DNA of 64,000 nucleotides. Source: a virus. This document shows positions 6,102 to 61,956 of this stretch, one piece after another. Under the pieces are notes generated by a model. That model saw only the letters and a list, made by a program, of their open reading frames with translations, made no database searches and was not told the DNA's origin. The stretch lies in the IMG/VR virus record IMGVR_UViG_3300035661_000025, positions 32,401 through 96,400 of that record; one strand, 5' to 3'. Position 1 is the stretch's first letter, and every line of letters starts with the position of its first letter. Made by a program: the position numbers and the translations under genes.

Positions 6102-6388
6102 CTCAAGGGATAGTAAAGCATAATATCAAAGCATTAGAGATATTAAAAAGGTCAACTCATATACTAGACAGTAGTGGAGCACCGATGTTTACAGATGACG
6201 AGATAGATGAAGCAATTTTAGAACTTGAAAAATTAAAAGATGTTGAGTTAGTGTTCGTTTTACTAAAAAACGAACCTTCAAATTGTGATGTCTGTAAATG
6301 GAAAAATAGTGGTTTATGGTCTAAATGTTTAACTTGTATTCGATACAGAGCACAAGGTCTAAAAGATAATTTTGAAAAGGAAAGATAA
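6098..6388 (+). CDS. hypothetical protein with CxxC...CxxC
   Basis: CDVC and CLTC; TTG start after AAGGA. Confidence 0.6.
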   Translation: MTQGIVKHNIKALEILKRSTHILDSSGAPMFTDDEIDEAILELEKLKDVELVFVLLKNEPSNCDVCKWKNSGLWSKCLTCIRYRAQGLKDNFEKER

Positions 6389-6390
6389 AA

Positions 6391-7446
6391 ATGACATTAT
6401 ACAAATTCCCAAGTATTGAGCAATTTCGCTCAGTGGTAAAACACGTTCGTGAACGTTCACAATTTGATGGGTTAGATGAAAATAACGAACCAATCTACAA
6501 TCATACAAAGAAAGCACCTAAGCTTATGTTTCACGGAACTACTAAGTTGCACGGAACAAATCATTCAATCGTAATTGATAAAGAGGATGGGTTTTATACA
6601 CAATCTCGGGAACGTATTAGTACACCAGAGAAAGATAATGCCGGTTCAAGTATTTGGTCTCATTCACATAAAGAGCATTTTGAAAAGGTAGTACTACCTT
6701 TTATGGAAGACATGCCAGACGCTAAAACTTGTATCATTTATGGTGAATGGTGCGGTGGCAATATTCAAGCAAAAGTAGCGTTAAATAAACTTCCTAAAAT
6801 GTTTGTTATTTTTGGTATCAAATTCATTAACCATGATGAATCTCAAGAATGGATTAATCTTGAAAATTTTAAAGGTCTTGCTGATTCACTAGCAGATGAA
6901 ACAAAAAATATCTATCACATTGAACAATTTCCTACTTGGGATATTGAAATTGACTTTGAGGCACCAGAAGAAGTTCAAAATAAACTGATTGAATTGACTA
7001 CAGAAGTAGAGAAACGATGTCCAGTTGCATTTAAACTTGGAGTAGACGGTATCGGAGAAGGAATTGTGTGGAAATGTGTTACTGATGTTGACGGTATGAA
7101 AACTCGTGATTTAATTTTCAAGGTAAAAGGTGAAGAACATGCAGGTAAATCTAAAACAAAAGTTCTTGCCCCAGTTGACGTTGAACGGATCAAGAACATC
7201 AATGAACTTGTTACTAAACTAACTCCTGATTGGCGTTTGGAACAAATGTATCAAAACGTATTTGATACATTAAATGGTGGAACTGGTGATATTAAACGTC
7301 TTGGTGAATTCCTTAAAGCGATTGTAGGTGATATTGTTAAGGAAGAATTAGATACAATCACTGCTTCTGGATTTGAAGTTAAAGACTTGACTGGAAATAT
7401 CAATAAAGTTAGTCGTGATTGGTTCATGAAGAAATTAGATATTTAA
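6391..7446 (+). CDS. rnl2: RNA ligase, Rnl2 family
   Basis: KLHGTN (motif I), QSR, YGEW.G, GEGIVW, FKVKGE. Confidence 0.88.
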   Translation: MTLYKFPSIEQFRSVVKHVRERSQFDGLDENNEPIYNHTKKAPKLMFHGTTKLHGTNHSIVIDKEDGFYTQSRERISTPEKDNAGSSIWSHSHKEHFEKVVLPFMEDMPDAKTCIIYGEWCGGNIQAKVALNKLPKMFVIFGIKFINHDESQEWINLENFKGLADSLADETKNIYHIEQFPTWDIEIDFEAPEEVQNKLIELTTEVEKRCPVAFKLGVDGIGEGIVWKCVTDVDGMKTRDLIFKVKGEEHAGKSKTKVLAPVDVERIKNINELVTKLTPDWRLEQMYQNVFDTLNGGTGDIKRLGEFLKAIVGDIVKEELDTITASGFEVKDLTGNINKVSRDWFMKKLDI

Positions 7447-25314: not shown

Positions 25315-26568
25315 GTGAAAACTGCAGGAAATAGATTTTATTTTGAAGAAATTGTAGCAAATATGATAGATCCTACAAATAATCTACAATTTTATGCACA
25401 TTTATTGGCTCAATGTAAAATTTCGATGGATAAATCTTTTAGAGCCCCTGCAGGTGTTTATTTTGATACTTATACATATGGTTTGGTTATAAATCCAATT
25501 CTGTTCAATAAATTTACAAAAAAAGAAAAAGTAGCTATTTTAATTCATGAAGCGTTTCATATAGCATACAATCATGTAACAGTTAGAAAAAAAGATGACC
25601 ATGAAAGATGGAATTATGCTACAGATATAGCTATAAATCAGCTAATCAAAGATCTTCCAAAAACAGCTCTTCATTATAGTCAATTTGATTTACCTGCAGG
25701 ATTTTCGGCAGAGCAATATTATATTGCATTACTTGATAATGAGAAATATAATCAGAAAAAAGAGCAAGATGAAAAGCTAAAAAAACAGATGGAAGAATTG
25801 TTTGAAGAAGCAATTAAGAAAGGATCTTTAGATGTAGATTCTGATGAATGTTTTGGAGATGGTTCTGAAATTGATATACCTTTTGATATACCGATTGATG
25901 CTCATGATAAAGAATCAGAAGGGGATGAAGAATATAGAAAAGAAGTTACCAAAAATATGTTAGAAAAAGCCTCTGAAAAATCTAGAGGAAATGAACCAAG
26001 CGATTACGCTGACATGATTTCTTTATATACAAAAAAAGCTGTGGTTGATTGGCGCAAAGAATTGAGACGGATCGTTGGAAACAAAAAAGCAAATAAACGT
26101 AGAACAATCATGCGTCCAGATCGAAGATTCCCTAATAGAGAAGAAATTAAAGGAATAACTAAAGATCGTATATTTGACTTAATTGTAGTCATGGATGTTT
26201 CTGGCTCTATGCAAGACAAAATGTTGGCTGATGGTTTGAATGAAATTAAAGAAATTTGTAAATTGACTAATTCAAATCTAAAAGTTATTCAAGTCGATAC
26301 AGATATTCATGAAGTAACTGAGGTAACAAAAACAACCACTAAATTTAATAGATCAGCTCATGGCGGAACTAGAATTTACCCAGCAATTGAATATATTAGA
26401 GATAATAAAATAGACCACAACGCTATAGTAATAATTAGTGATATGTGGATAGAATCATCAACAGAGTGGAAAATTCCTCCAAAAGTACCTTGTTTTTTCT
26501 TAAACACTTCAGGTAAAGATTGGGATGGATTTTCTAAATTTAAAAATTTTAAAAATTACCGTATATAA
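25315..26568 (+). CDS. DUF2201-type metallopeptidase + VWA domain protein (MoxR partner)
   Basis: HEAFH, WNYATDIAIN, SAEQYY, W...L; MIDAS DVSGSM, GGT, SD. Confidence 0.9.
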   Translation: MKTAGNRFYFEEIVANMIDPTNNLQFYAHLLAQCKISMDKSFRAPAGVYFDTYTYGLVINPILFNKFTKKEKVAILIHEAFHIAYNHVTVRKKDDHERWNYATDIAINQLIKDLPKTALHYSQFDLPAGFSAEQYYIALLDNEKYNQKKEQDEKLKKQMEELFEEAIKKGSLDVDSDECFGDGSEIDIPFDIPIDAHDKESEGDEEYRKEVTKNMLEKASEKSRGNEPSDYADMISLYTKKAVVDWRKELRRIVGNKKANKRRTIMRPDRRFPNREEIKGITKDRIFDLIVVMDVSGSMQDKMLADGLNEIKEICKLTNSNLKVIQVDTDIHEVTEVTKTTTKFNRSAHGGTRIYPAIEYIRDNKIDHNAIVIISDMWIESSTEWKIPPKVPCFFLNTSGKDWDGFSKFKNFKNYRI

Positions 26569-26579
26569 AGAAGAAAAAA

Positions 26580-27311
26580 ATGAACATTAAATTGCGAGAC
26601 AATTTACATGAACTTAAACAAAAATTGCTACAGAACGTGTTATGTATTTCTGATACTCATTTCGGGCATGTAAAAGTCTTTGAGAAATTTGAACCAATTA
26701 GAAAAACTTATACATTATCTAAAGGTAAGCAAACATTAAAAGATTTTGAAGATCTTATGGTAGAAAACTGGAATGAAACTGTTTTTGATTCTGATACTTT
26801 AATTCATTTAGGTGATGTATGTATTGATAAAATGAACCCGACAAAAACTGAAGAAAACCTAGCAATATCTTTAAAGTTGGAAGGGGAATCATTAATCTTA
26901 ATTAAAGGCAATCATGATAAATCTGATAATTCTCTTTATTATCAAAACGGATGGAATTTCGTAATTGATTGTCCAGTAATTTTATTAGATAATCCTAAAA
27001 TCATAGACAATGCTCCAGGACTAGCTCATTGTATTATAATTGATATAAACGGCAAAAGGGTAATGTTTTCCCATTTTGGAATCCACCAATATAATGAAAA
27101 CTTTGAGGGAAAATATAGAGAACCATTTAGATATTTGACCAAATTATACAATGATTATAAATGTGATTATAATATCCATGGACATAGTCATTCAAATGCT
27201 ATTAACTCAGAAAAATCATTTAACTGTAGTGTTGAAGTAATAAACTTCACACCTAAAAAATTGACAGATATTTTCGCTGTTTTAACTAAATTTAAGAATA
27301 AACTGTTATAA
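26580..27311 (+). CDS. calcineurin-like metallophosphoesterase
   Basis: SDTHFGH, HLGD, KGNHD, SH, HGHSH. Confidence 0.9.
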   Translation: MNIKLRDNLHELKQKLLQNVLCISDTHFGHVKVFEKFEPIRKTYTLSKGKQTLKDFEDLMVENWNETVFDSDTLIHLGDVCIDKMNPTKTEENLAISLKLEGESLILIKGNHDKSDNSLYYQNGWNFVIDCPVILLDNPKIIDNAPGLAHCIIIDINGKRVMFSHFGIHQYNENFEGKYREPFRYLTKLYNDYKCDYNIHGHSHSNAINSEKSFNCSVEVINFTPKKLTDIFAVLTKFKNKLL

Positions 27312-27337
27312 TAATATACAAAATAAAAGGAAAGAAT

Positions 27338-28189
27338 ATGACCTCAAAAATTCAAGAAAAAGACCCATTCGGTCATAGAATTAAAGAATATGAAGCAAGT
27401 GCAGAGATTTATTTGGATAAATCCAAATACTCCATCATGCGAATTGATGGGCACGGCTTTTCTAAATGGACGAAAGGTTTCTCAAAACCTTTCGATGAAT
27501 TTTTAGCAAATGCATTAGCAGAAACAGCTAGAGCATTGATGGATGAATTTAAAGCAGTTTGCGCTTATTCTCAATCTGACGAAATCACCTTGATTTTTGC
27601 TCCAGATGATAACTTGATTTATTCTGGAAGAATTCAAAAACTAACTTCATTAGCGGCATCATTTGCTTCAATGAAGTTCAATGAATTAATCAGAGAAACT
27701 CTTAGTAAATTATACACTGAGAAAGAAGGTTTGATGCGTGTTAGATCTGCTTCTGTTGAATTATCTAAAGAATATGATAAAATTAACAATAAGGTTTCTT
27801 TTTTGGAGACAAAAATTGGAAGAGCATTTTTTGATGCTCGAGTTTTTCAAGTTCCAGATAAAACTGAGGCATTTAATTCACTTTTATGGAGAACCAGAGA
27901 TTGTGAACGAAACTCTAAAAACGTTTTTGCTCAAAGTATTCTATCCCATAAAGAATGTCAAAACAAAACAAGCAATGAACTAGTTGAGATATGTGAAGAG
28001 CTTGGTCATTTTTGGAGCGATATTCCAGATAAATACAAATATGGAATTCTTTGGAAAAAAGAAACGTATTTGAAACAGCCAGAAAACCCAGAGTTAGAAC
28101 CATGTTTCAGAACAAGATTCATCCAAATCATTAAGAGATTGAATTACTCAGACGAGAATGTTGAAATGGTGCTTTGTAATAAACTTTAA
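27338..28189 (+). CDS. thg1: tRNA(His) guanylyltransferase Thg1-like 3'-5' polymerase
   Basis: RIDGHGFS, QSDEITL, GRIQKL.S, FDAR, WR..DC.RNS; promoter 27292-27312. Confidence 0.92.
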   Translation: MTSKIQEKDPFGHRIKEYEASAEIYLDKSKYSIMRIDGHGFSKWTKGFSKPFDEFLANALAETARALMDEFKAVCAYSQSDEITLIFAPDDNLIYSGRIQKLTSLAASFASMKFNELIRETLSKLYTEKEGLMRVRSASVELSKEYDKINNKVSFLETKIGRAFFDARVFQVPDKTEAFNSLLWRTRDCERNSKNVFAQSILSHKECQNKTSNELVEICEELGHFWSDIPDKYKYGILWKKETYLKQPENPELEPCFRTRFIQIIKRLNYSDENVEMVLCNKL

Positions 28190-28242
28190 TAAGTTTCAAA
28201 GGTAATTTCTGTTATAATTAAATGTAAGAAAGAAGGAGTCCT

Positions 28243-28347
28243 ATGGCGTATTTTTTAACAATTACATTCATTGCTATAATGATGTATGGCGTATTTTCAT
28301 CTTGTAATGTATTTTCAGAATTGAAGGGTAGAATAAATGTTAATTAG
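28243..28347 (+). CDS. small membrane peptide (34 aa, not in ORF track)
   Basis: AAGGAG RBS after TGTTATAAT (28210-28218); hydrophobic. Confidence 0.45.
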   Translation: MAYFLTITFIAIMMYGVFSSCNVFSELKGRINVN

Positions 28348-28711
28348 CAATATACGAAGTGTATTAGAGATTTGTTTCAAATCTAATGAAACTTTAATGA
28401 TTGAAGGCCCTCATGGGATTGGAAAATCAGAGGTTGTAGCTAATTTTGCTACAGAAAATAATATGCATAATGAAACATTATTCTTGTCCAACCAAGAAGT
28501 GGGTGATTTGATTGGTATGCCACGTTCAATAGAACGTAATGGTGAGGTTATTCATACATGGACGAAACCTATTTGGTTACAAAAAATGGAAGAAGCGGTT
28601 ATGCCCGCTAAATTCGATGTAGATGATTTAGAATTTTCGGATGAGGACTTCAAGGCTTTCGTTTACTCAAAACTAAAGGAATTGAATGAAGTTAGTAAGG
28701 GACAAATATAA
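28337..28711 (+). CDS. MoxR/AAA_5-type ATPase, N-terminal half (Walker A)
   Basis: IEGPHGIGKS, LFLS.QEVGDLIGMP, W..P.W; no Walker B. Confidence 0.85.
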   Translation: MLISNIRSVLEICFKSNETLMIEGPHGIGKSEVVANFATENNMHNETLFLSNQEVGDLIGMPRSIERNGEVIHTWTKPIWLQKMEEAVMPAKFDVDDLEFSDEDFKAFVYSKLKELNEVSKGQI

Positions 28712-29213
28712 AGATATAATCCCAGAAGATAAGTTATTTTATATTGAACAAACAGATAAAAAAAGTTTAATAAAATATCTTTCTTTAAAACTAAAAGAGG
28801 AAACTCAAGAGTTTATAGATACTGGATTGACATCTCTAGAAGAACTAGCGGATATTATGGAAGTTTTAGATACCATAATGGAAACATTTGGAATCAATCC
28901 TGATGAGTTGGCGAATGTAGCTAAAAATAAAAATGAAGAAAAAGGGTCTTTTAAAGATTATCTTCTATATGATGATTCTGTTCCAGAAGAAGCAAAAAAT
29001 AATGGCGGAAGCACAGATTATTATAAACTTCCTGCGGGAGCTAAAGATTTGCAAGATCTCATTGAATTTAAAAATATGAACTTTTCTCAAGGTAATATAT
29101 TCAAAGCTATGTATAGATCTGGCGTAGAGCATCATTCGACATATGAAAGAGATTTGAATAAAATTATTTTCTTTGCAAAAAGAGAGTTAAACCGAATTAA
29201 AGGAGACTCATGA
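28686..29213 (+). CDS. MazG-like pyrophosphohydrolase fused to DUF3310-like domain
   Basis: MKLVRD, KLKEE..E, EELADI; GGSTDYY, DLIE..MNF.QGNIFKA.YR, DL.K. Confidence 0.75.
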   Translation: MKLVRDKYKDIIPEDKLFYIEQTDKKSLIKYLSLKLKEETQEFIDTGLTSLEELADIMEVLDTIMETFGINPDELANVAKNKNEEKGSFKDYLLYDDSVPEEAKNNGGSTDYYKLPAGAKDLQDLIEFKNMNFSQGNIFKAMYRSGVEHHSTYERDLNKIIFFAKRELNRIKGDS

Positions 29214-29734
29214 AAGTAATAAATTTTTTCGGCGGTCCAGGTACCGGAAAAAGCACTACAGCTGCAGGATTGTTTCATTTAATGAAAACAATGGGTTATA
29301 AAGTAGAATTGGTAACAGAATACGCCAAAGACGTAGTTTATCAAGAATCATTTTTTAAACTTAAAGATCAATTGTATATTTTTACTAAACAACATCATAA
29401 GCTGTGGAAACTTAGAGGAAAAGTAGATTATGTTATAACGGATAGCCCGTTATTGTTATCGTTACATTACTTTCAAGAAAACCCCATTTATAATGAAGAT
29501 AATTTCAAAGCTTTTGTTAAAAGCACATATGATGCTTATGACAATATAAATATTTATCTCATCAGGAATTTAGACCATCACCCATATCAGGGATATGGTC
29601 GAACTCAATCAGAATCTGAGGCGATACAGATAGATCGAGATCTTGTAGAGTTGTTGACACAAAATAAGGTTCAATATTCATCTAAACTAATTACTTCAAG
29701 TATTGTTCAGGATGTTTTTGATATAATCAAATAA
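29210..29734 (+). CDS. P-loop kinase (AAA_28/NadR-like)
   Basis: GGPGTGKST, EYAK, ITDSPLLL, GR.Q...EA..ID. Confidence 0.8.
   Translation: MKVINFFGGPGTGKSTTAAGLFHLMKTMGYKVELVTEYAKDVVYQESFFKLKDQLYIFTKQHHKLWKLRGKVDYVITDSPLLLSLHYFQENPIYNEDNFKAFVKSTYDAYDNINIYLIRNLDHHPYQGYGRTQSESEAIQIDRDLVELLTQNKVQYSSKLITSSIVQDVFDIIK
29719..29727 (+). promoter_or_regulatory. extended -10 promoter for SLT-bactofilin operon
   Basis: TTTTTGATATAAT inside the last codons of the kinase gene. Confidence 0.5.
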
Positions 29735-29879
29735 CCTAAAAATGTAAGGTTATGTAACTTTTGTTTTTCTGGCAAATGAAACAAAAAGATAGTTACAATG
29801 ATTGAAGCACTTTCTTAAGAAAGTAGGTAAAAGATGATAGGTTTCATCTTCCAACGAAATTGAAAAAAGGAGATCAATA
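29731..29879 (+). other. candidate structured 5' leader RNA
   Basis: Four consecutive stem-loops: ATAACCT/AGGTTAT, GTAACT.TTTGTTT/AAACAAA.AGTTAC, ACTTTCT/AGAAAGT, AAGATGA/TCATCTT. Confidence 0.45.
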
Positions 29880-30593
29880 ATGGTAATAAATCCAATTGAT
29901 AATTTACGGAAATCTATTAGAATTCAACGAAATTTAATAGTCGGTTTAGTAGCACTTGTTGCAGTGACAGTGTATAGCGCTAAATTGTACATTGATTCGT
30001 ATTATAACGACATTCGTATTGAGAATAAGAATGTAAAAGAACTCAATGATAAAAAAGCTCAAGAAATCGAGCGCCTTAAGAAAGATTTGGAAAGAAATGA
30101 AGCTGAGTTGAAGAAATTTAATGTTCAGAAACAAGTAATTTCAATGTATATTAAGGAGAAAAATCCTAAAGTTGATGATAAAGAAGCTGCTTATTATGCT
30201 ACTGAAATCATCAAATCCTCAAACAAGTATGAAAATGTTAAACATACGGTTTTAACCGGTTTAATAGATTCTGAATCTTCTTTTAAGAAGAATGTCAAAC
30301 ACAATGCTGGATCATCTATACACATTGGTGTAAAAGGATTTACAGGAGTTGCTTCAGGTATATGGTCTAAAGAATTGATTGCCAATCATGTTATCCGAAA
30401 ACCAAGTGATTTGGAAATTCCAAAATACGCTATAGCCGCCGGGGCATATATTTTGAACAAATATTCTAAACATCAGTCCACGTTTGAGGCACTAGTTGAT
30501 TATAAATCAGACTGTCCTTTAGGTAGAAAACAAGCTCTAGATGTTTTAGCTAGAGCTGATAAAATCAAAAGAATGGAAGAAAGATATGCTTAA
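29880..30593 (+). CDS. membrane-anchored lytic transglycosylase (SLT-like)
   Basis: N-terminal TM, coiled coil, then GLIDSESSF (catalytic Glu), G.KGFTGV, I.AGAYIL, AL..Y. Confidence 0.7.
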   Translation: MVINPIDNLRKSIRIQRNLIVGLVALVAVTVYSAKLYIDSYYNDIRIENKNVKELNDKKAQEIERLKKDLERNEAELKKFNVQKQVISMYIKEKNPKVDDKEAAYYATEIIKSSNKYENVKHTVLTGLIDSESSFKKNVKHNAGSSIHIGVKGFTGVASGIWSKELIANHVIRKPSDLEIPKYAIAAGAYILNKYSKHQSTFEALVDYKSDCPLGRKQALDVLARADKIKRMEERYA

Positions 30594-30936
30594 TTTTTTC
30601 AAAAAAGAAAATCCCGATTTTACAATAATCGGGAAAGATTCTACATTTAAAGGCGAGATAACCAGTTCTCATCAAGTTTACATAAAAGGCACTGTAGAAG
30701 CTAATAAAATCATAGCTAAAAGTGTTTTTATTGAAGTTGGAGGTTCTTTAACTGCCGATATAGAATGTTCCGAAGTTTTTATCGCTGGAGTTTATAAAGG
30801 AAACATTAATTGTAGTAATATCACTATTGAACCTACCGGTGACGTAGAATCAGATATTACTTATACATCTATGTTGAATATAAATCCAAACTGCACATAT
30901 AATGGAACCATAAAAAAATCTTTAAATTCCGTTTAA
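30586..30936 (+). CDS. bactofilin (polymer-forming cytoskeletal protein, CcmA-like)
   Basis: MLNFFKK membrane-targeting-like start; TIIGKDSTFKGEI, IKGTVEA, IEVGGSLTADI, IAG.YKGNI, IEPTGDVESDI.Y..L.I....YNG beta-helix turns. Confidence 0.88.
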   Translation: MLNFFKKENPDFTIIGKDSTFKGEITSSHQVYIKGTVEANKIIAKSVFIEVGGSLTADIECSEVFIAGVYKGNINCSNITIEPTGDVESDITYTSMLNINPNCTYNGTIKKSLNSV

Positions 30937-30938
30937 AT

Positions 30939-30972
30939 TATCAGGTTGTTTTAAGCAACAACCTGATATAAT
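30939..30972 (+). promoter_or_regulatory. early promoter embedded in a 12-bp inverted repeat
   Basis: TATCAGGTTGTT-TTAAGC-AACAACCTGATA overlapping TTAAG-N8-TGATATAAT. Confidence 0.65.
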
Positions 30973-30999
30973 AATACAAATAAACCTTCAGGAATGATT

Positions 31000-31953
31000 A
31001 TGATAATAACTCGAGAAATCCTTCAAAACTTATACAATCAGTATTATGAAACAGACCACAGTCTGTTGAGCAAACACAACACTCACGTTCATTATTCAAA
31101 AGGTAAACACACCTCATTATTACTAGATGAGTTAAATCGTGCACCATTGGATATAAGACAAGCTGCACTTCAATTAATCCTAAGCAAACAAATACATCAA
31201 CATACATTACCTTATTTTAAAGGTATTCCGGCTATGGTTACAGCTTGTATTAATCCAGAAGATGGATATCAAGTTGAAGCTATGGACCCAGCATTGCTAG
31301 ACAGATTTTTAACATTAAATGTTACTGTTGATGCAAACGCTTGGCTAAAATGGGCGGAAAATCATGATGTCTTAAAAGTTATTAGATCTTTCATTCGTGA
31401 TAATCCAGACAAATTACATTGGAGTTCAGTAGAAGTTCAAGATTCAAAATATCCTACTCCACGAGCATGGACTAAATTATCGGACGTTCTTAAAAACATC
31501 CCAAATGCCAAGAAAAATCCTTTGACTTTAGATTTAATAAAAGGAAAAATTGGAGAGAGTATTGGGACTCGTTTTTATACTTATTTTTGTAAATTTGATG
31601 AACAAATAACATCAGATGATATTCAAGCATATGTAGAAAATCATGAATCTGAAGATCCAGAAATCATTGGAAATGATTTGAGAAAATCATTATTAAAATC
31701 TATGGATGTATTGAACAAATCTGAATTGACTGAGTTTTTCATTAAGACACAAATAGTAAAAAACGCCACAGTCAGTTCAGCCCTTACCGCACTCAGTATG
31801 TTATGGTGTGTAGAATTGGAAACTCGTGGTTCTATTTTGAGCAATTTAAAAGAAAATCATCTAGATGTATTTAAAATTTTCTTGAATTTGGATACAGATC
31901 GTAAAATAACTAAATCCATCACTTCTTTAATATTAAAAGGACGTGAATCATAA
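31000..31953 (+). CDS. MoxR/AAA_5-type ATPase, C-terminal half (Walker B, Arg finger, lid)
   Basis: LLLDELNRA, ACINP, MDPALLDRF, PTPRAW; no Walker A; AGGA RBS favours ATG 31000. Confidence 0.85.
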   Translation: MIITREILQNLYNQYYETDHSLLSKHNTHVHYSKGKHTSLLLDELNRAPLDIRQAALQLILSKQIHQHTLPYFKGIPAMVTACINPEDGYQVEAMDPALLDRFLTLNVTVDANAWLKWAENHDVLKVIRSFIRDNPDKLHWSSVEVQDSKYPTPRAWTKLSDVLKNIPNAKKNPLTLDLIKGKIGESIGTRFYTYFCKFDEQITSDDIQAYVENHESEDPEIIGNDLRKSLLKSMDVLNKSELTEFFIKTQIVKNATVSSALTALSMLWCVELETRGSILSNLKENHLDVFKIFLNLDTDRKITKSITSLILKGRES

Positions 31954-32048
31954 ATATTTTTAATTAAAATAAAGGAGTACATGTGGGTATTGAATGTTGA
32001 TATGACTTTGAAGGAAAGATTTGATTAATCACCTTTAGAGGCAGTATA

Positions 32049-33404
32049 TTGAATAATTTTGAAAAAATTTATGTTTTAGACACGAACGTTATTTTGAATG
32101 ATGTAGTTAATATTGAGATCTTATCTCAACAATCATCTAACTTGATAGTTTTACCAGAAACGGTAATGGACGAAATTGATGTTAAAAAGACTGGGTTTGA
32201 AGAAATAAATTTCCAAGCCAGATCTTTCGGACGCTTGCTAGAGAAAGCTGATATATTGTACGCTGATAAAAATACAGATTACACAATATCAAGAATGTTT
32301 ATCAATTCGGATAAAAACATTACTATAGATGTTATTTCATTAAACAAATACAAAAGTGTAGAAGGAAATGTAGACCGACACATTTTAAATGACCGAAAAA
32401 TTTTAGAGGTAGCTGAAGAATGTGAAAGACTTTATGATATTCCAATAGTGTTCATTTCTAATGATGTTATGTGTAGACTAAGAGCAATATCTTTAGGTTT
32501 AAAAACTGAAGGTATGGGTCGAGATTACAAAGAAGACTTGGAATTATATCAAGAAATTGAATATAAAGAAGATACATTACCTAAAGCAGTTGAAGCTAAA
32601 GATTTATCAATTCCTGATAATATTTTTGGATTATGTTTGTATAAAGAAGATGGAAATCGAAGTTACTATTACAGATCTGGAAACATATTTCATGAGATTA
32701 ATGAAGATGAACTTAAACGCCAAGATATCAAACCTCAAAACATAGAACAAAAAATATATTCTAGTATGATAAACGATCCATTTTATGATGTAGTTGTAGT
32801 AGATGCACCAGCAGGTTCTGGAAAAACATTGATTGCTTTGAGTGCAGCTATGAAATTAGTAAAAAAGAATCCTACAAGATTCAATAAAATCGTTTACATG
32901 AGAAAAACAGTAAATGCAGATGATGAAGAAATGGGCTTTCTTCCAGGAACACAAGAAGATAAATTATCTCCTTATTTGGCTCCATTGTATTCTAACTTAG
33001 AAGCAATAATCAATGCTAAATTTAAACAAAATAGAAAATTCACTAAAGAAGAATTAGAGAATAAGATGATTGATTTGATTAAAGAATATCAAATAACATC
33101 TTTGTTTGAAGGTTTTTTGCGTGGAACTAATATAAGAGATGCTGTTGTAATTATAGATGAAATTCAAAATGAATCGGTAGCTAGCATTAGAACATCATTG
33201 ACTCGGGTAACAGAAGGTTGTAAAATAATTGCTATTGGTTCTAATAAACAAATAGATAACAAATATATCAATAAACACACATCGGCTCTAACATATTTGA
33301 TTAACCGAATAATGTTAGAAAACAAAGATGTTAATATTGGAGCAATTAAATTAACAAAAACTGTACGTTCTAGAATTGCAGAATGGGCAGACGATTTTAA
33401 ATAA
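32049..33404 (+). CDS. phoH: PIN-PhoH protein
   Basis: VLDTNV, ND.KIL; APAGSGKT, MGFLPG, LRG, IIDEIQN, TRV, QID, RS. Confidence 0.92.
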   Translation: MNNFEKIYVLDTNVILNDVVNIEILSQQSSNLIVLPETVMDEIDVKKTGFEEINFQARSFGRLLEKADILYADKNTDYTISRMFINSDKNITIDVISLNKYKSVEGNVDRHILNDRKILEVAEECERLYDIPIVFISNDVMCRLRAISLGLKTEGMGRDYKEDLELYQEIEYKEDTLPKAVEAKDLSIPDNIFGLCLYKEDGNRSYYYRSGNIFHEINEDELKRQDIKPQNIEQKIYSSMINDPFYDVVVVDAPAGSGKTLIALSAAMKLVKKNPTRFNKIVYMRKTVNADDEEMGFLPGTQEDKLSPYLAPLYSNLEAIINAKFKQNRKFTKEELENKMIDLIKEYQITSLFEGFLRGTNIRDAVVIIDEIQNESVASIRTSLTRVTEGCKIIAIGSNKQIDNKYINKHTSALTYLINRIMLENKDVNIGAIKLTKTVRSRIAEWADDFK

Positions 33405-33413
33405 AGGAAAGAA

Positions 33414-33962
33414 ATGGGTGTTAGAGAAATAGATTTTATTTCAGAATCAGAAGATTCTTTAAGAGATAAGCTAACCCCATTGCCTTTATCTCCAAGAGAG
33501 CAAGTCTTCGCAGCTAATCAATTGATACAGAATAATAAATGTATAGACATTTATGAAAAAATATTAAAACAATTGATTTTTGAAGACAAAAAATTCCTCA
33601 CAATGATAGCAAAAGCATCATTGACTCAAACGAAAAATCAAATTTACTTTTCTAAATTCCTGGATACTATCCAGGAATTGAATTATAAAACAAAAGAATC
33701 TATAATTCAAGATACATTTCAAAGCACATGTACATCTATGAGAGATGAAATGTTTGATTATTGTTTATCTGTTATTCAAGATGCTTCATTTAAAGACAAT
33801 GTAATTTTCTTTTTATTGAGAAATAATCAAAACTTAAATATGAATAAAGTGAAAATTAGACCTGAGGTTATCCATCAAGGGTTTGTGTCCAATCAAGAAG
33901 AAATTATTGAGAATATAGATAAAGACAAATTTTACTTCAAACATCCAGAATTTTACTTATAA
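33414..33962 (+). CDS. hypothetical protein ending HPEFYL
   Basis: AAGGA RBS. Confidence 0.7.
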   Translation: MGVREIDFISESEDSLRDKLTPLPLSPREQVFAANQLIQNNKCIDIYEKILKQLIFEDKKFLTMIAKASLTQTKNQIYFSKFLDTIQELNYKTKESIIQDTFQSTCTSMRDEMFDYCLSVIQDASFKDNVIFFLLRNNQNLNMNKVKIRPEVIHQGFVSNQEEIIENIDKDKFYFKHPEFYL

Positions 33963-34018
33963 TTAATTTTACATTAAGTATTTTTTGTTATAATTATATC
34001 ATAAAATAAAGGAATACA

Positions 34019-51613: not shown

Positions 51614-54460
51614 TTGGAAAATAAAGAAAATAACGGGCTCCTTTCTAAATTAAAGGGGTTTCGCGATTCTACAGCCGAGTCTGTAGAAAAGATAGGAAAT
51701 TCAAAAGCTGTAAAAACTGTAAAAGGTACTAAAAACGTTTTAAGTTATTTGTTTACAGATAAAGGTTATGAGAAACATTCCAAAGATATTCATAAGACTT
51801 TAAAAGATACAGTTAAAAATATAGTTTTATCTGAATATCAAAAAGAGAAAAAAGATTTTGAAGAAAATTTAAAACAAACTATAGATATTTTATTAAAAGA
51901 TTTGAAAGGTGATGAAGCCGATGAAATCAAAGATAAAATAATGAAAGAAACCGTTTCAAAAATAATGAAACGAGATAAAGATGAATTGTCTAAAATAATG
52001 AAAGATAGTAAATTGATGACTGAAGAATTTACTGCTTCATTAGATGGTGCAATGAAGCCATTTGAAAAAGTTCTTTCTCCAGATCATTTTTCTGATACAA
52101 TAGATAATGCAATCAAACGTGCTTTTTTTGGAGATATTGAACAGAAAAATCAAAAAGAAAATAAAAAAGTATTTGATGAAATATCTAATAAAGTTGATAA
52201 TTTACCAGATTCAGATGAAATTAATTTATCTATAAAATCTATAGTAAAAGAAGCTGAAGGTAAATTATCAAAAAGAGTAAATAAGTTAGACACCAAGCTT
52301 ACTAAGTTATTGCTTAAATCACATAGGCCTGATTTAGATTTTGATAATGCAATGGCTGGAAAAAATCTTGGCGAAAATAAACCAGGATTATTCAAAAAAT
52401 TGGACACTAATTTAAAAACTGACCAATCTGTGAATAAAGATTCCAGTGGCGGCGGATTATTAGATATGTTTTTAGGCGGTGCCAGCGCTGTAGGTGCATG
52501 GGCTGCCATGAAAAAAATGTTAGGTATTGGCAAAACACCGGTTAATGAGTCAGTTAATCCTAAAGTTAAACCAAATTCATGGTCAACTAAATTAGGTGAT
52601 GTTGAAGCCGGATCTGATATTAAACCAGTAAATAAATTAGCTCCAGTAAAACCGTTAGCTCAGTCGGCACCTGTAAGTGACGTTAGCAGATTATCAAAAT
52701 TAACGTCTAAAATTCCTACGGGTGTTTCAAAAGGGTTAAAGGTTGCTGGAAATGTAGCTAGTAAAGTTGCAGTTCCCTTAACGGGTGCAATTGCTGGATA
52801 TGATAGATATAATCAAGTAAAAAATGATGAAACATTATCTACGGGTCAAAAAACAACTAAGGTAGCGGCAACCGCCGGAGGAGCAATGGCAGGAGCCGCT
52901 ACGGGTGCAATGGCAGGAGCCGCTATTGGAAGTGTAGTTCCTGTTTTTGGTACTGCTATTGGAGGTATTGTTGGTGGTATTGCCGGTGCATATTTAGGGC
53001 AAAAAGGTGGTGATGCTTTAGGTGATTATGCAAGCTCAAAAATGCAATCACCTAAAGCGCCAGCTGGATATATCCCACAAAAAACAGTTCCTGGTATAAA
53101 ACAAGGACCTGTTCCAGATGGTATGTTACCTCCGCCTCCTCTATTAGTAAAACAAATAGATCGTGTAGAAAACGCGGCTGATAAATTAGAAGGTCTTAGT
53201 GGAACATCTAAAGTTTCTAAAAATAACAAAACTGTTATTAAAAAACCAGTAACTATAGATCAAAAAGTAGCTAAGATAGAACAAAATACTAAAGATATTT
53301 CTAAAAACGTTAGTATATTGACTAGAAACCTTATAAAAGAGAAACAAAAAGAATCTTTAGGATTTGATACCACCACAGCTAATAAACCAGATAAATCAGT
53401 TAAAATTGAAGCTACAAATGTTGCTGATGAAGGTGATGATGATGATAATAAAGGATTTTTAGGTTCTATAACTTCAGGATATCAAAATAATGGATTATCT
53501 GGTTCAATTAAAGCAGGTGCTCAATATATTTCTAATAAAGTGTCTTCAGGTGGAGGACTTTTTGGAGGATCTAATAATGGCGGCGGTTCCGCATCTCCTG
53601 GATCATTTTTCTCAAAAGCTTGGCAAAATGCTTCTAACGCTGTAACTAATATAGGTAATTCAATCAAAGGAAAAGGTTTCAAGCTAAGTGGTGGCGTAAA
53701 TTACCAAGGAGTTAATTCTGGGGTCAAAAAGAATTTTGAAGAAATGGCTGCAGAATATAAGCAAAAAACTGGTAAAGATATTTTAATCACTTCTGGATAT
53801 AGATCTTCTGAAGAACAAGCTAGATTGTATGCTTCCAAACCAAAAGGGATGGCAGCAAAACCAGGAAGATCTATGCATGAATATGGTATGGCTATAGATA
53901 TAGATCCATCTAACGCAAATGACTTGGCTAATATGGGGTTATTATCAAAATATGGATTTGATAGACCTTACTTATATAATAGAGGTGAGACTTGGCATAT
54001 AGAACCAGTAGGTTTAAATAAAGATGCTATAATGAAAGCTGGTTATCAAAACACTCAAGCAGCAACAGCCAAAACTTCAACACCCTCAACTCAATCATCT
54101 GGAGTAAGCAAAAAACCTACAGCTACAGATATGGCTACGGATGGTGTAGATACACAAACATTAGAAGCCGATAAGGAAGAAGATTCTGTTGCAGCAGCAT
54201 TAGACAAAAAGACTTATTCATCACCAACAGTTTCTAATCCTAAAGCAGTATCAGTAGATATAAAACCATCAGATTCACCAGTTACAGTTGCTCATCAAAA
54301 TGATAAACTAGATACTACAAAAACTAAAAAAGCGGCTCCTATTGTTATAAATAATCAAAATAATAATAGTAAAAGCGAAAAAGCTCGCGACAAATCAGAA
54401 TTCGGAATGAAACATTTAGAAAGCGTTAATCCGTATATCACGGCATTAATGACTTTGTAA
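51614..54460 (+). CDS. tape-measure/gp29-like protein with M15 (VanY-like) peptidase domain
   Basis: Long helical, Gly/Ala zipper; ITSGYRS..EQ, PGRSMHEYG.AIDI, ETWHIE. Confidence 0.8.
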   Translation: MENKENNGLLSKLKGFRDSTAESVEKIGNSKAVKTVKGTKNVLSYLFTDKGYEKHSKDIHKTLKDTVKNIVLSEYQKEKKDFEENLKQTIDILLKDLKGDEADEIKDKIMKETVSKIMKRDKDELSKIMKDSKLMTEEFTASLDGAMKPFEKVLSPDHFSDTIDNAIKRAFFGDIEQKNQKENKKVFDEISNKVDNLPDSDEINLSIKSIVKEAEGKLSKRVNKLDTKLTKLLLKSHRPDLDFDNAMAGKNLGENKPGLFKKLDTNLKTDQSVNKDSSGGGLLDMFLGGASAVGAWAAMKKMLGIGKTPVNESVNPKVKPNSWSTKLGDVEAGSDIKPVNKLAPVKPLAQSAPVSDVSRLSKLTSKIPTGVSKGLKVAGNVASKVAVPLTGAIAGYDRYNQVKNDETLSTGQKTTKVAATAGGAMAGAATGAMAGAAIGSVVPVFGTAIGGIVGGIAGAYLGQKGGDALGDYASSKMQSPKAPAGYIPQKTVPGIKQGPVPDGMLPPPPLLVKQIDRVENAADKLEGLSGTSKVSKNNKTVIKKPVTIDQKVAKIEQNTKDISKNVSILTRNLIKEKQKESLGFDTTTANKPDKSVKIEATNVADEGDDDDNKGFLGSITSGYQNNGLSGSIKAGAQYISNKVSSGGGLFGGSNNGGGSASPGSFFSKAWQNASNAVTNIGNSIKGKGFKLSGGVNYQGVNSGVKKNFEEMAAEYKQKTGKDILITSGYRSSEEQARLYASKPKGMAAKPGRSMHEYGMAIDIDPSNANDLANMGLLSKYGFDRPYLYNRGETWHIEPVGLNKDAIMKAGYQNTQAATAKTSTPSTQSSGVSKKPTATDMATDGVDTQTLEADKEEDSVAAALDKKTYSSPTVSNPKAVSVDIKPSDSPVTVAHQNDKLDTTKTKKAAPIVINNQNNNSKSEKARDKSEFGMKHLESVNPYITALMTL

Positions 54461-58422: not shown

Positions 58423-61400
58423 ATGGCTACAGCTAAAATGATAACTACCATAACTGAAAAGATCTCTACTTCTGGTCCGGGAACTCCTCAGTTAGATGCA
58501 CTTAATGGTATATTAAGAACAGCAAAAACTAGTTGTATAAGTCAAACTGGATTTTTAACTGAGGCACTTAGTCAGTATAATCAAATAAGAAGCTTATTAA
58601 ATTCAGCATCTTGTACCGTACATTGGAGTACTTTTGATTTTGCAGGAAGAATAGCTATGGGTGACTTCATGGATGATTCCATGACAGAATTACTTGGAAC
58701 TAATCCTTCAGCAGCGTTAACAAAAGCAAACAATTTAATAAATTCTGCATGTTCTATGATAAATGGTCTTATGAATTTTGTAAACATGATGAAAAATTTC
58801 ATGCTTCAGATATATTCACTTTTAGACTTTCTTAAAGGAATAGGAGATTTTGATATTGATTGTAATTTTGGCGATCTAGTTACATTATTATCTCAAACAC
58901 CTAATTTTTCACCTTCAACATCGTTTCCGTCTTATATGGAAGGTCATTTAAGAAAAACCGAAAGAATAATCGGAAAAATGTACGGAAATAAATCTAATGG
59001 CACTAGAAATATAAAAGCTTTAAATGAAGTTCAATTGACTAGATATCCGACAGAAAATATATCTTTAGCAGATATTTTGAAGTATAGTAAAGTGAATATT
59101 GATAGTGCGGAATATGACCCAGATTTTGGTTATATGTATGACGCTGGTGTTAGATATGACCAAGAATTGGTAGATATGCAATCTAGACTAGTAAATGCTT
59201 TAGTTGCTGAAGCTGGAGATATTGGAACTTCAGAATTACAAACTCAAGGTTTTTGTTCTATTTCAGGAAATGATACTAAAGAAGCGTGTTTAGCTGCTGG
59301 TGGTATTTGGACATTAAATGATGATATATCAAAAACAGTAAAAAAAGTTCCTAGAACATGGTATGTAGAATCTGATATAGATTTTATGAATTTAGATATT
59401 CTAGCTGGTGATAATGTAGAAGATAAAAGAAATGGAACATTATATATAAAAACACATGAAATAATTCCAGAATTGTTTTCTGATGTAATGATTCAAGGTT
59501 GGGCAAATCATGTAGCCCCATTCAATTTCATTTTAGATAATAAAAGCAAAAAGGGTGATAATTCATTCATAACTCTTCAAGATATTCCAAATCTAGAAAA
59601 AATATTGATTAGAGCTAAAACTGACTATGATAATTCAATTTATAAAAAGACTATAACAATAGCTAAATATACTGATTCATTATCTAGATTAGCTGAGACG
59701 GGAGAAACCCCATCAGTAATACAAGATTATTTAACTTTTATGAATTCATATGACTTAAGAACTGTAAATTTATACACATTATATGAGATTTTGGATAATA
59801 ATCCAAACAAAATTGGTAGATTAAAATGGATTATTGAAGCTGGTAAAGACGCTATTGCTAATAAAACAAATAGCTTCACTAAAAATGATGGTATAAATGG
59901 GAATATAACTCTTACTTTTCCATTATCATCATATGATTATGAAAATATAAAGAACAATGACATAAACAATAGCAATGAATTTATAAGCACAGATATTTCA
60001 AAAATTAATTCATTTAATTATCATATAAAACAATTTTATGATGAATTCAAAAACTTTGATGAATTTATTACTAACTTAACCGAAAAGATTACGGAAATGG
60101 ATTCAAAATATAATGATTTCATTATAAAAAATTCATTATCAGATGCTTTATATTACGGAACCAAAAAATCTTATGATTACCCAGGTAAAAATATAATTAG
60201 AATAGGGGACGGCAAAGTTTATTTAGCTTTTTCTAATCCACACATTCAAATAACAAACGAAGTTTCCGAAAATCCTTCTTTGAATTTATTTCATGGCGAT
60301 GTTTGGCAAGATAGTACTACACATAAAGTTTACATGTATTTGAGATTACTGGGTAGCACTTCATCTACATTCACTTATGAATGGAAAGAGATTGGAAGTA
60401 CTGTTCAAATTTTTAGGGATTTAAATGAAGATCCCATAAATGTAACTTTAACATTAGATGCTTCGGTTTTTTCTAATATTGATAACAAAACAAATACATA
60501 CTCATCTAATGATGGAATAGACCCAGCTGCTACTTGGAATGAGTATCAATCATGGACTAATATTGGAGATATTTGGTTAGATTCTAGTGATTCTGCTTTA
60601 GGTATTAGACAAAAAGTATATTCATATAATGGAACTAATTTCGTTTGGACTCCTTTGTTATCAAATAACCCTCCTATTATTGCTCCAGTAGTAATAAATA
60701 CAGCTGAAGATACTGCAATTACTGGAAATATGTTGAATGGTGTTTTTGATATTGATGGTGATAGTTTCTATCTAGATAGCATCAAAATAAATGGAACAGA
60801 AATTTCTACGAACCCTAATTTAGCTAGTGTTGATGTTCATATATCTGGATTTGGTTTGTTAAAATTGATTGGAAATAAAGGTGATTATTATTTTTATCCA
60901 GATCAAAATGTAAATGGTTCATTTAGTTTCAGTTATAAAGTAATTGATTCTAAAGGAGCATCTAGCGTTTCGTTATGGACTATATATATCACTCCCGTCA
61001 ATGATAGACCTGTTATATCAGGGCCAATCAATGTGGTTTATAGCGCAGATGTGTTGACTACTCAATCTATAAATTTATTGCAAAATGCTTCAGATCCAGA
61101 AAATGATGAATTGTTTGTATCAGATATAGAATGTTTGACTGATAATGATAAAGCTGGTCAGTCTGGTATTGAAAAATATTTTACAACATCTAATATATTG
61201 AATGTGCTGCCATCATATTATAAAGATATATTAAAAAGATCTGAAACAGAAATTATAAATTATACTTATTCAATAACAGATGGTTATTCACCTAAAGCGT
61301 TCACTGGATTGACTATTTCAATAACTGGTATCAATCACGCTCCAGTTTTAAATGAGGTTATTAAAAATTATAATTTCTTTGCAGATGTTAATTCCACTGA

Positions 61401-61956
61401 TATTTTATTATCAGATTTAGCTACAGATTTTGATGGAGATATTTTAAATATTTCAGATTACGTGAAATTTACAGATCCGAAAAATTCATTATCTGCAAAC
61501 GTTACAAAGTTTGTGATAAATCCATCCAAATATTATAATGTTTTGAAAAGAGGTGAAGTTCAAAATATATCAGCTAATTATAAAGCTAATGATTTGAATG
61601 GTGGGTTTTCAGATTTAGGAACATTGAATTTTAAAATAACTGGAGTTAATCACGCCCCAGAAATAACACAAGATTATGGGGTTAGTTTTATAAAAACTGA
61701 TGCATCTTCCAATATAGATATGCTAAAATATGCTATTGATTTTGACGATGATGTATTACTTGTAGAACCAAATAGTATCTCAATAACTGGAGACGATGCT
61801 GGGATAGCTATTAATAATAACATAATTACAGTAACACCATCTTCGTATTCGACAATAACAAATCCTGAGATCATAACAATATTTTTCAAAGTTAAAGATG
61901 AAATGAATGTAGAATCTAATCTAGGAAAAATTATTATAACTATAAATCCTCAATAA
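58423..61956 (+). CDS. large virion protein with C-terminal cadherin/Ig-like repeats
   Basis: NNPP..TAEDT, VNDRP, INHAP, VNHAP with D.D/EGD.L; GD.W.D repeats. Confidence 0.75.
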   Translation: MATAKMITTITEKISTSGPGTPQLDALNGILRTAKTSCISQTGFLTEALSQYNQIRSLLNSASCTVHWSTFDFAGRIAMGDFMDDSMTELLGTNPSAALTKANNLINSACSMINGLMNFVNMMKNFMLQIYSLLDFLKGIGDFDIDCNFGDLVTLLSQTPNFSPSTSFPSYMEGHLRKTERIIGKMYGNKSNGTRNIKALNEVQLTRYPTENISLADILKYSKVNIDSAEYDPDFGYMYDAGVRYDQELVDMQSRLVNALVAEAGDIGTSELQTQGFCSISGNDTKEACLAAGGIWTLNDDISKTVKKVPRTWYVESDIDFMNLDILAGDNVEDKRNGTLYIKTHEIIPELFSDVMIQGWANHVAPFNFILDNKSKKGDNSFITLQDIPNLEKILIRAKTDYDNSIYKKTITIAKYTDSLSRLAETGETPSVIQDYLTFMNSYDLRTVNLYTLYEILDNNPNKIGRLKWIIEAGKDAIANKTNSFTKNDGINGNITLTFPLSSYDYENIKNNDINNSNEFISTDISKINSFNYHIKQFYDEFKNFDEFITNLTEKITEMDSKYNDFIIKNSLSDALYYGTKKSYDYPGKNIIRIGDGKVYLAFSNPHIQITNEVSENPSLNLFHGDVWQDSTTHKVYMYLRLLGSTSSTFTYEWKEIGSTVQIFRDLNEDPINVTLTLDASVFSNIDNKTNTYSSNDGIDPAATWNEYQSWTNIGDIWLDSSDSALGIRQKVYSYNGTNFVWTPLLSNNPPIIAPVVINTAEDTAITGNMLNGVFDIDGDSFYLDSIKINGTEISTNPNLASVDVHISGFGLLKLIGNKGDYYFYPDQNVNGSFSFSYKVIDSKGASSVSLWTIYITPVNDRPVISGPINVVYSADVLTTQSINLLQNASDPENDELFVSDIECLTDNDKAGQSGIEKYFTTSNILNVLPSYYKDILKRSETEIINYTYSITDGYSPKAFTGLTISITGINHAPVLNEVIKNYNFFADVNSTDILLSDLATDFDGDILNISDYVKFTDPKNSLSANVTKFVINPSKYYNVLKRGEVQNISANYKANDLNGGFSDLGTLNFKITGVNHAPEITQDYGVSFIKTDASSNIDMLKYAIDFDDDVLLVEPNSISITGDDAGIAINNNIITVTPSSYSTITNPEIITIFFKVKDEMNVESNLGKIIITINPQ

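Follow-up and report, generated by a model that had tools for sequence, protein, structure and literature searches.

A phage-borne gene pair for a bactofilin and a membrane-anchored lytic transglycosylase: a candidate envelope module

The stretch of DNA considered here, referred to below as the window, comprises the last 64 kb (positions 32,401 to 96,400) of the 96.4-kb IMG/VR virus record IMGVR_UViG_3300035661_000025, and coordinates are those of the window unless a relative is named. The record is 55% complete according to the CheckV estimate, the other 45% of the genome lying outside it; the G+C content of the window is about 29%, and no transfer RNA genes were found in it. Two open reading frames (ORFs) on the plus strand are the subject of this work: the first (29880-30593, 237 amino acids, aa) encodes a bitopic, membrane-anchored lytic transglycosylase, the SLT protein in what follows, and the second (30586-30936, 116 aa) encodes a bactofilin. 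A first-pass annotation, made from the letters of the DNA, had already pointed to two overlapping ORFs at this place: both sets of coordinates proved exact, with 8 nucleotides (nt) in common, and a Pfam profile search placed the products, above the respective cut-offs, in the families which had been named for them, Bactofilin (PF04519) and SLT (PF01464).

The ORF at 30586-30936 is a genuine bactofilin, as established by Pfam search, AlphaFold2 modelling, Foldseek comparison, profile alignment and the ratio of non-synonymous to synonymous substitution rates (dN/dS). The PF04519 profile matches with 71.4 bits (cut-off 27.9; E 7.5e-20) over profile positions 1-97 of 98, and the match is unique within the 96.4-kb record; the bactofilins of two related IMG/VR contigs presented below, L004 and L006, also pass, with 58.6 and 50.1 bits, respectively. 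The AlphaFold2 model is an all-beta helix with a predicted local distance difference test score (pLDDT) of 91.5, and its best Foldseek matches in the PDB are the bactofilin filament of Thermus thermophilus (6rib; TM-score 0.87, root-mean-square deviation, rmsd, 1.8 A) and BacA of Caulobacter (2n3d; TM-score 0.85). The protein is laid out as an N-terminal peptide, MLNFFKK, resembling those that target bactofilins to membranes, and a beta-helix core at about residues 12-111, a C-terminal tail being absent: the reading of the ORF as a complete bactofilin beta-helix with an MLNFFKK start is thus borne out by 97 of the 98 profile positions and by the superposition of the model on both 6rib and 2n3d.

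Two regions of the bactofilin deserve closer description. Profile alignment to 2n3d and 6ria sets Y105 of the window protein at the position of F130 in BacA and of F105 in the Thermus protein (TtBac), the relatives having F, I or V there: the F130R exchange abolishes the polymerisation of BacA (PMC12448750), and that of TtBac is stopped when F105 is changed to Arg (title of PDB 6ria). At the other end, the membrane-targeting consensus of bactofilins is MFSKKKK, binding being due to N-terminal hydrophobic residues and two lysines (PMC12448750). The N-termini within the phage family read MLNFFKK, MLNWFKK or ...GIFKKKE; MLNFFKK combines hydrophobic residues with two lysines as the consensus does, yet is not identical to it, and by this likeness of sequence the N-terminus of the phage protein looks like a membrane-targeting peptide. 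The bactofilins of the relatives L004 (5697-6164), L005 (5549-6106) and L006 (9172-9915) carry, in addition, charged C-terminal tails of 40-130 aa, whose evolution is nearly neutral (dN/dS 0.5-1.3); the window protein has nothing of the kind.

The product of the first ORF (29880-30593, plus strand) was studied by Pfam search, hydropathy, AlphaFold2 and Foldseek, an alignment of eight family members and dN/dS. Its layout includes a cytoplasmic tail (residues 1-19), a transmembrane (TM) helix (20-38), a helical stalk up to about residue 94 and an SLT/GH23 domain (100-237); Pfam, hydropathy and AlphaFold2/Foldseek agree with the TM segment, coiled coil and SLT-like ESSF domain that the first reading had recognised. 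The Pfam SLT score is borderline (26.6 bits against a cut-off of 21.3), and a profile of the family retrieves no PDB sequences. The AlphaFold2 model (pLDDT 86) shows an unbroken helix from residue 5 to residue 94, followed by a globular domain with the alpha-helical catalytic fold of goose-type lysozymes. Foldseek relates this domain to GH23 enzymes with a probability of 1.0, but with E-values of only about 1e-2, the matches including Ralstonia chitinase 3w6f, P. aeruginosa Slt 5ohu, MltE and gonococcal LtgA 5o1j, the last of which superposes on the model with an rmsd of 1.8 A over 144 columns. E132, within the ESSF motif (S-E-[SC]-x-F in the family), is invariant in all eight members, and its place in the Pfam register suggests equivalence to the catalytic glutamate. 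The modelled fold may also be compatible with a lysozyme-type hydrolase activity.

As regards topology, the SLT protein has a single strongly hydrophobic segment, residues 20-38, with a mean Kyte-Doolittle value of 2.0 (2.0-2.4 across the family) and a composition rich in Leu, Ile and Val. Since the N-side flank of this segment is net positive, with four Lys/Arg, and the C-side flank is charge-balanced, an N-in orientation is indicated, which puts the SLT domain in the periplasm; the periplasmic helix that carries it comprises 56 residues, an estimated 8 nm or so. The tail left in the cytoplasm is 14-19 residues long and basic throughout the family, and N4 and P5 are its sole invariant residues in the 8-member alignment, continuing as an N-P-[I/L/F] motif. 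In the ESM Atlas, similar helix-plus-SLT proteins form virus-only clusters.

The two genes share the 8 nt ATGCTTAA (30586-30593, plus strand), in which the start of the bactofilin gene lies over the stop of the SLT gene, an arrangement that argues for coupled translation of both proteins. The ATGNNTAA overlap is maintained in the relatives, always with 8 nt: it reads ATGTTTAA in L004 and L006 and ATGCATAA in L005. Translational coupling is likely. The relatives in question are five IMG/VR contigs (L003-L007), to which P0178, a split-form relative of the neighbouring ATPase, led; a search for the same gene pair in other phages had been proposed in the first-pass annotation, and it is in these contigs that the pair was found. 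The gene order is window-like in five of five: Thg1, the N-terminal piece of a MoxR gene, small genes, AAA_28, the TM-coiled-coil-SLT gene, bactofilin, the C-terminal MoxR piece and PhoH. With respect to the window, protein identity is 42-43% for the SLT protein and 29-31% for the bactofilin, and the recurrence of the same pair and overlap in such diverged relatives means that the observation is not due to chance. Moreover, the dN/dS values computed among L004, L005 and L006 (0.12 for the SLT gene and 0.20-0.35 for the bactofilin core, with the 0.5-1.3 already given for the bactofilin tail) indicate that both genes are kept by purifying selection. The folds and families of the two proteins, their topology signals, the catalytic glutamate, the conserved overlap and synteny and the action of purifying selection are supported directly by these data.

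Further relatives come from metagenomes. The SLT relatives P0003-P0006 are 80, 69, 50 and 37% identical to the window protein, in this order. For the bactofilin, a word-based protein search gave no relatives, these lying below about 45% identity and being visible to exhaustive phmmer only; the latter returned 964 bactofilins at E <=1e-3, only three of them better than 1e-10, the nearest being P0009 (43%). Going solely by the equal recorded nucleotide sizes of their source contigs, the P-numbered relatives pair up as SLT protein and bactofilin, respectively, in P0003 and P0159 (14697 nt), P0007 and P0158 (11659 nt), P0008 and P0009 (2357 nt), P0004 and P0160 (5931 nt), and P0005 and P0046 (2150 nt). 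The closest counterpart by DNA is a 22.6-kb contig from a wastewater run, colinear with 26500-33998 at about 95.6% identity, whose only listed indel within 28.7-31.9 kb falls in an intergenic gap.

Among cultured phages, megablast of 28000-32200 and tblastn of the SLT protein against GenBank phages gave no match, nor did tblastn of three different bactofilins against 50,697 GenBank phage records: as far as sequence comparison goes, cultured GenBank phages are without a detectable relative of either protein. No matches were obtained either in IMG/VR scans with the window bactofilin, the SLT protein, the MoxR C-part, P0159 and P0011, in two JGI metagenome scans or in two GTDB genome scans, and a PHROG family match was absent for every bactofilin tried.

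The pair is flanked by conserved non-coding DNA. Alignment to L004-L006 revealed an element of about 80 nt directly upstream (29800-29879, plus strand), made up of GATTGAAGC, a small CTTTC-loop-GAAAG hairpin and AACGAAATTnAAAAAAGGAG with a ribosome-binding site, which occurs only once in the window. Its blocks are identical in the window, L004, L005 and L006, while the adjacent SLT protein is only 42% identical, and the loop of the hairpin varies among the relatives: the element is a candidate promoter, operator or 5' leader. A structured RNA was considered for it and rejected, the RNAalifold result being too weak (-1.95 kcal/mol, two compensatory pairs). Downstream, 3 nt past the bactofilin stop, a repeat search found a perfect 12-bp hairpin, TATCAGGTTGTT / AACAACCTGATA, with a 6-nt loop (30939-30968, plus strand), whose function is inferred. 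After it, ahead of the C-terminal MoxR piece, stands TGATATAAT (30960-30975), an extended -10-like sequence of the form TGnTATAAT. At the matching place, the relatives have the hairpin AGTGA-gtaa-TCACT, with TGATATAAT in L004 (about 6235-6250) and L006 and CGTTATAAT in L005, motifs which suggest that the C-terminal MoxR piece may have its own promoter.

The conservation of the upstream element, of the hairpin behind the bactofilin gene and of TGnTATAAT makes a separately controlled SLT-bactofilin unit plausible. Of the transcription unit of their own that had been claimed for the two genes, therefore, the coupling of the genes stands, and separate transcription has only been made plausible. 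That the unit is under a host-type rather than a late promoter, as had also been proposed, is not established: a sigma-70 consensus scan yielded 21 sites against 21.6 expected, which is uninformative, and, with no enrichment, no single promoter can be named. A T4-type late promoter was rejected too, TATAAATA being absent from the 146-nt gap that precedes the SLT gene and not enriched in the window (15 occurrences, 19.6 expected). No RNA datasets were listed as carrying the stretch, and the wastewater 'RNA-Seq' runs probably contain DNA. Apart from these elements, an exact 13-nt direct repeat, TATGGCGTATTTT, is found at 28242-28254 and 28285-28297, 43 nt apart and just 5' of the N-terminal MoxR piece, with an inverted copy at 30422-30434, inside the SLT gene; it is possibly an operator or promoter element.

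In every case, the pair sits in a multi-gene insert that divides the gene of a MoxR-type AAA+ ATPase between Walker A and Walker B. On the left, the insert is bordered by the N-terminal piece (28337-28711, plus strand; PHROG 1297 positions 11-96), which keeps Walker A (GPHGIGKS) and has acquired a 32-aa new tail, and on the right by the C-terminal piece (30994-31953, plus strand; PHROG 1297 positions 97-310), which keeps Walker B (LLLDELNRAP) and has a 34-aa new head. Between both halves there are about 2.4 kb of unrelated DNA with four genes. The first encodes a fusion protein, MazG-like in its N-half and with a conserved 'NNGG.TDYY' C-half (28686-29213, plus strand, 175 aa; weak Pfam match to PRA-PH, and PHROG 4521/4897 on the C-half) and the second a small P-loop protein of AAA_28/nucleotide-kinase-like type (29210-29734, plus strand, 174 aa; Pfam AAA_28 with E 1.8e-11, PHROG 2107), which is 62-64% identical in L003-L007; the SLT and bactofilin genes follow.

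The position of the break follows from alignments to the ATPase of Vibrio phage phiKT1024, which is intact and has 369 aa: the N-terminal piece matches its residues 1-92 with 54% identity and residues 35-319 of the C-terminal piece align to 89-369, so that the break falls between Walker A and Walker B. Down to 52% identity, the relatives of the ATPase have the size of the split form (313-317 aa); those of intact size (363-376 aa) do not exceed 41%. Both extensions, the tail of the N-terminal piece and the head of the C-terminal one, are likewise conserved in relatives down to 52% identity and may allow the halves to reassemble.

The content of the insert varies, with four genes in the window and L004 and six ORFs in L006. 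The MazG-like half and the 'NNGGSTDYYKLP' C-half are separate ORFs in L006, and the C-half occurs alone in L004; furthermore, L006 has an extra 329-aa ORF (6193-7182) directly after the N-terminal MoxR piece, with no Pfam match and with a match to PHROG 2475 (unknown function) at E 2e-13, which might be the element originally responsible for dividing the MoxR gene. An intron between the halves was discarded, an Rfam match being absent in 27500-32500 and flanking repeats being absent too, and an intein is excluded by the stops and separate starts. Neither terminal or flanking repeats nor a recognisable homing endonuclease were seen at the insert by Pfam, PHROG and repeat search. A sediment contig (run X4) joins 28582 to 31132, skipping 2549 nt, as an unsplit MoxR gene would, although the join is weak, with a 21-nt anchor on one side. 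Upstream, the 417-aa protein at 25315-26568, labelled 'HNH endonuclease' by PHROG 1314, is really a DUF2201 metallopeptidase + VWA protein, of the kind that usually accompanies MoxR ATPases, and it is kept upstream in L004 and L006. A phage enzyme gene that likewise persists as two separately translated, retained pieces is that of NrdA in Aeromonas phage Aeh1, which is split by the homing endonuclease mobE; the insert described here differs in consisting of four to six non-endonuclease genes, with no homing endonuclease detected.

As to kinship and habitat, the only cultured phages matched by the helicase are the Va1/phiKT1024 group of Vibrio phages, at 36%, and Campylobacter phages, at 32%, and the MoxR piece gives the same picture. 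The Campylobacterota host which the first reading had assumed is not established: the phage kinship is compatible with it and the host-like gene searches were empty, and a GTDB scan with the TonB-dependent receptor of the phage found no close genomic relative. The poisoning of host CcmA, proposed along with that host, is not established either. Runs from microbial mats and sediment contain the DNA, and wastewater contains the 95.6%-identical relative; hydrothermal-vent runs hold small shares of the stretch, in short pieces only. Elsewhere in the window, a 1177-aa protein (58423-61956) with bacterial cadherin-like and Big_9 Ig domains and no PHROG match is likely a fibre or adhesin.

In bacteria, bactofilins are scaffolds that place wall enzymes such as PbpC, LmdC and the Csd proteins. 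LmdC starts with a short stretch in the cytoplasm and continues through a TM helix and a coiled coil in the periplasm to the hydrolase domain at its C-terminus, and its cytoplasmic region binds BacA directly with a dissociation constant of about 15 uM (PMC10945521); in Caulobacter PbpC, the first 13 residues are both necessary and sufficient for recruitment by BacA, and binding needs polymerised BacA (PMC12448750). It is this precedent, together with the conserved N4-P5 of the tail, the N-terminal peptide of the bactofilin and Y105, which leads to the proposal of a bactofilin polymer capturing the tail of the enzyme. The pair would then be a phage-borne two-gene envelope module, built like BacA-LmdC or BacA-PbpC, in which a membrane bactofilin polymer holds the transglycosylase by its tail, a reading that in our judgement stands evenly balanced between right and wrong.

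The proposed mechanism would run as follows. The bactofilin would form polymers beneath the inner membrane of the host, on its cytoplasmic side, attached via its hydrophobic and lysine-rich N-terminal peptide, MLNFFKK. The co-translated bitopic enzyme would offer its short basic cytoplasmic tail, with the invariant N-P-[I/L/F], and its stable TM helix and helical stalk of about 8 nm would place the SLT domain at the peptidoglycan. By binding and clustering the tails, the polymer would focus the cleavage of glycan strands at defined sites of the infected cell; the candidate benefits to the phage include local loosening or reshaping of the wall, a block of division, the choice of the lysis site and the exclusion of other phages. 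Polymerisation, membrane binding, the contact between tail and bactofilin, the activity of the enzyme, the timing of its expression and the gain for the phage are what we infer here. The wider statement, that a viral bactofilin cytoskeleton positions a periplasmic lytic transglycosylase and thereby sets the sites of host-wall opening or remodelling, is offered tentatively, as a possibility we rate at somewhat less than even.

Several observations weigh against this proposal. The tail of the enzyme, with its 14-19 residues, is modelled as the start of a helix and has no beta-hairpin of the LmdC type. Nor does it co-vary visibly with the bactofilin: the window protein and P0003 have near-identical tails but bactofilins only 44% identical, and P0003 and P0004 have differing tails but bactofilins more than 90% identical, which fall in one 90% cluster. 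Moreover, the bactofilin evolves about four times faster (dN) than the SLT protein, and the C-terminal tail of 40-130 aa found in the relatives is missing from the window bactofilin. The SLT orthologues of L004 and L006 have no Pfam match at E 0.01, and the virus-only clusters of the ESM Atlas suggest that this enzyme type may occur in phages outside the clade. Finally, a dedicated endolysin was not detected anywhere in the 96-kb record, and lysis could therefore be all that the enzyme is for.

Lysis is accordingly the first alternative to be weighed: the anchored transglycosylase would be an endolysin or a lysis accessory, which the bactofilin restrains, times or localises from the cytoplasm. 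The enzyme is the only SLT of the 96.4-kb record, where Phage_lysozyme, Amidase_2, M23, GH108 and GH19 were not found, and the other wall-hydrolase domain detected is a VanY/M15 peptidase only, at residues 700-769 of a virion-type protein of 948 aa (51614-54460) with tape-measure and tail-lysin PHROG matches, itself probably a virion-borne wall-piercing enzyme. The combination of TM helix and coiled coil recalls an i-spanin of the Rz type, the N-part of P0003 matching spanin PHROG 739 weakly (E 0.004), and the virus-only clusters of similar helix-plus-SLT proteins fit as well. However, no small membrane gene of holin or spanin type adjoins the pair, the neighbours being in all lineages the P-loop kinase-like gene and the bactofilin, and the surroundings are genes of replication and nucleotide metabolism (Thg1, MoxR, PhoH, ligase). 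Signal-anchor-release (SAR) anchors are weakly hydrophobic, Gly/Ala-rich and releasable, unlike the strongly hydrophobic TM helix found here (Kyte-Doolittle 2.0-2.4). With a normal lysis cassette possibly lying in the 45% of the genome outside the record, a lysis device is an unlikely explanation.

Interference with the host, carriage as passenger genes and superinfection exclusion are less likely. In the first of these, the main target of the phage bactofilin would be a bactofilin of the host or its machinery of division and elongation, reached by co-polymerisation or by competition for clients, the SLT protein acting independently. The conservation of the bactofilin core and of its end-interface residue speaks for it, and the fast, lineage-specific change of the bactofilin (dN about 4x that of the SLT protein) would fit the tracking of a host target; nevertheless, an overlap with the SLT gene that is conserved over deep divergence argues for a joint function, and we regard interference as improbable. 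Hardly better placed, and improbable to a slightly higher degree, is the view that both genes arrived with the mobile insert splitting MoxR and are kept by linkage, with little benefit as a pair. The variable content of the insert (four genes in the window and L004, six ORFs in L006) is compatible with passengers, as is the sediment contig in which 28582 and 31132 may be joined directly, the insert being absent, on its 21-nt anchor at one side; but intact reading frames and purifying selection characterise both genes in lineages only about 42% and 30% identical in protein sequence, conservation extends to the overlap and to the non-coding element upstream, and no terminal repeats, homing endonuclease or intron match were seen. 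Superinfection exclusion or envelope modification, in which an altered wall or periplasm bars later phages, is the most improbable reading, since the position among non-structural genes, the membrane location and the presence of other envelope proteins in the record (e.g. the TonB-dependent receptor, a 564-aa ORF) are compatible with it but nothing speaks specifically in its favour, and we know of no exclusion system of such a build.

The interest of a module in which a phage bactofilin holds a transglycosylase lies in its novelty as well as in its possible uses. The first-pass annotation knew of no characterised phage example, and the literature searched agrees, containing no description of a phage bactofilin or of a bactofilin-transglycosylase pair; the bactofilin clients described in it are all synthases or endopeptidases, with no lytic transglycosylase and no viral one among them. 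Bacterial modules of bactofilin and hydrolase being already known, what would be new is a phage-borne module with a lytic transglycosylase as client: if the proposal is true, it is the first viral morphogenetic module of bactofilin and wall hydrolase, and the first bactofilin client to cleave glycan strands. If the mechanism holds, moreover, the pair provides a compact minimal system (116 aa + 237 aa, free of tails and additional domains) in which client recognition by bactofilins could be studied, a new phage route to manipulating the architecture of the host envelope, and a further class of phage cytoskeleton beside the tubulin-like and actin-like proteins.

The likeness to bacterial modules of bactofilin and wall hydrolase, with an SLT domain replacing M23, had been noted from the outset, and the match to the layout of LmdC upholds it (PMC10945521). 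In Hyphomonas neptunium and Rhodospirillum rubrum, as in the phage, a bactofilin gene (bacA) adjoins the gene of a bitopic peptidoglycan hydrolase (LmdC) in an operon (eLife 2024, PMC10945521), and both hydrolases share the order of tail, TM helix, coiled coil and C-terminal catalytic domain. The differences concern, first, the catalytic domain, which is SLT/GH23 in the phage, a type that cuts glycan strands, and an M23 endopeptidase cutting peptide cross-links in LmdC, no M23 domain being found anywhere in the 96.4-kb record; second, the tail, of 14-19 aa in the phage against about 38 aa with a bactofilin-binding beta-hairpin in LmdC; and, third, the arrangement, since in the phage hydrolase precedes bactofilin, with 8 nt common to the two genes, and the whole module is viral.

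The BacA-PbpC system of Caulobacter crescentus (eLife 2025, PMC12448750) resembles the phage pair in three respects: BacA has an N-terminal membrane-targeting peptide, MFSKQAKS, of which MLNFFKK in the phage is a candidate counterpart, both bactofilins have an aromatic residue at the polymerisation interface (F130 and Y105), and PbpC, like the proposed client in the phage, is a bitopic enzyme of the wall whose extreme N-terminus carries a conserved peptide. In contrast, PbpC is a synthase and the phage enzyme a lytic one, the N-terminal peptides are dissimilar (MNDWTLPPYKFDD and MVINPIDNLRK, respectively), and the genes do not overlap in Caulobacter. The CcmA and Csd1/Csd2 proteins of Helicobacter pylori and Campylobacter jejuni (PMC10151779 for C. 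jejuni CcmA) offer another parallel, with a small bactofilin encoded beside wall-hydrolase genes at the locus for helical cell shape. There, however, the partners are of the M23 type and the module is chromosomal, setting the steady-state shape of the cell. Finally, phages possess cytoskeletal proteins of other kinds, the tubulin-like PhuZ and TubZ and the actin-like AlpC, whose polymers organise the infected cell: these are driven by nucleotides and position DNA or the phage nucleus, whereas a bactofilin is a nucleotide-independent beta-helix scaffold, linked in this phage to a periplasmic enzyme.

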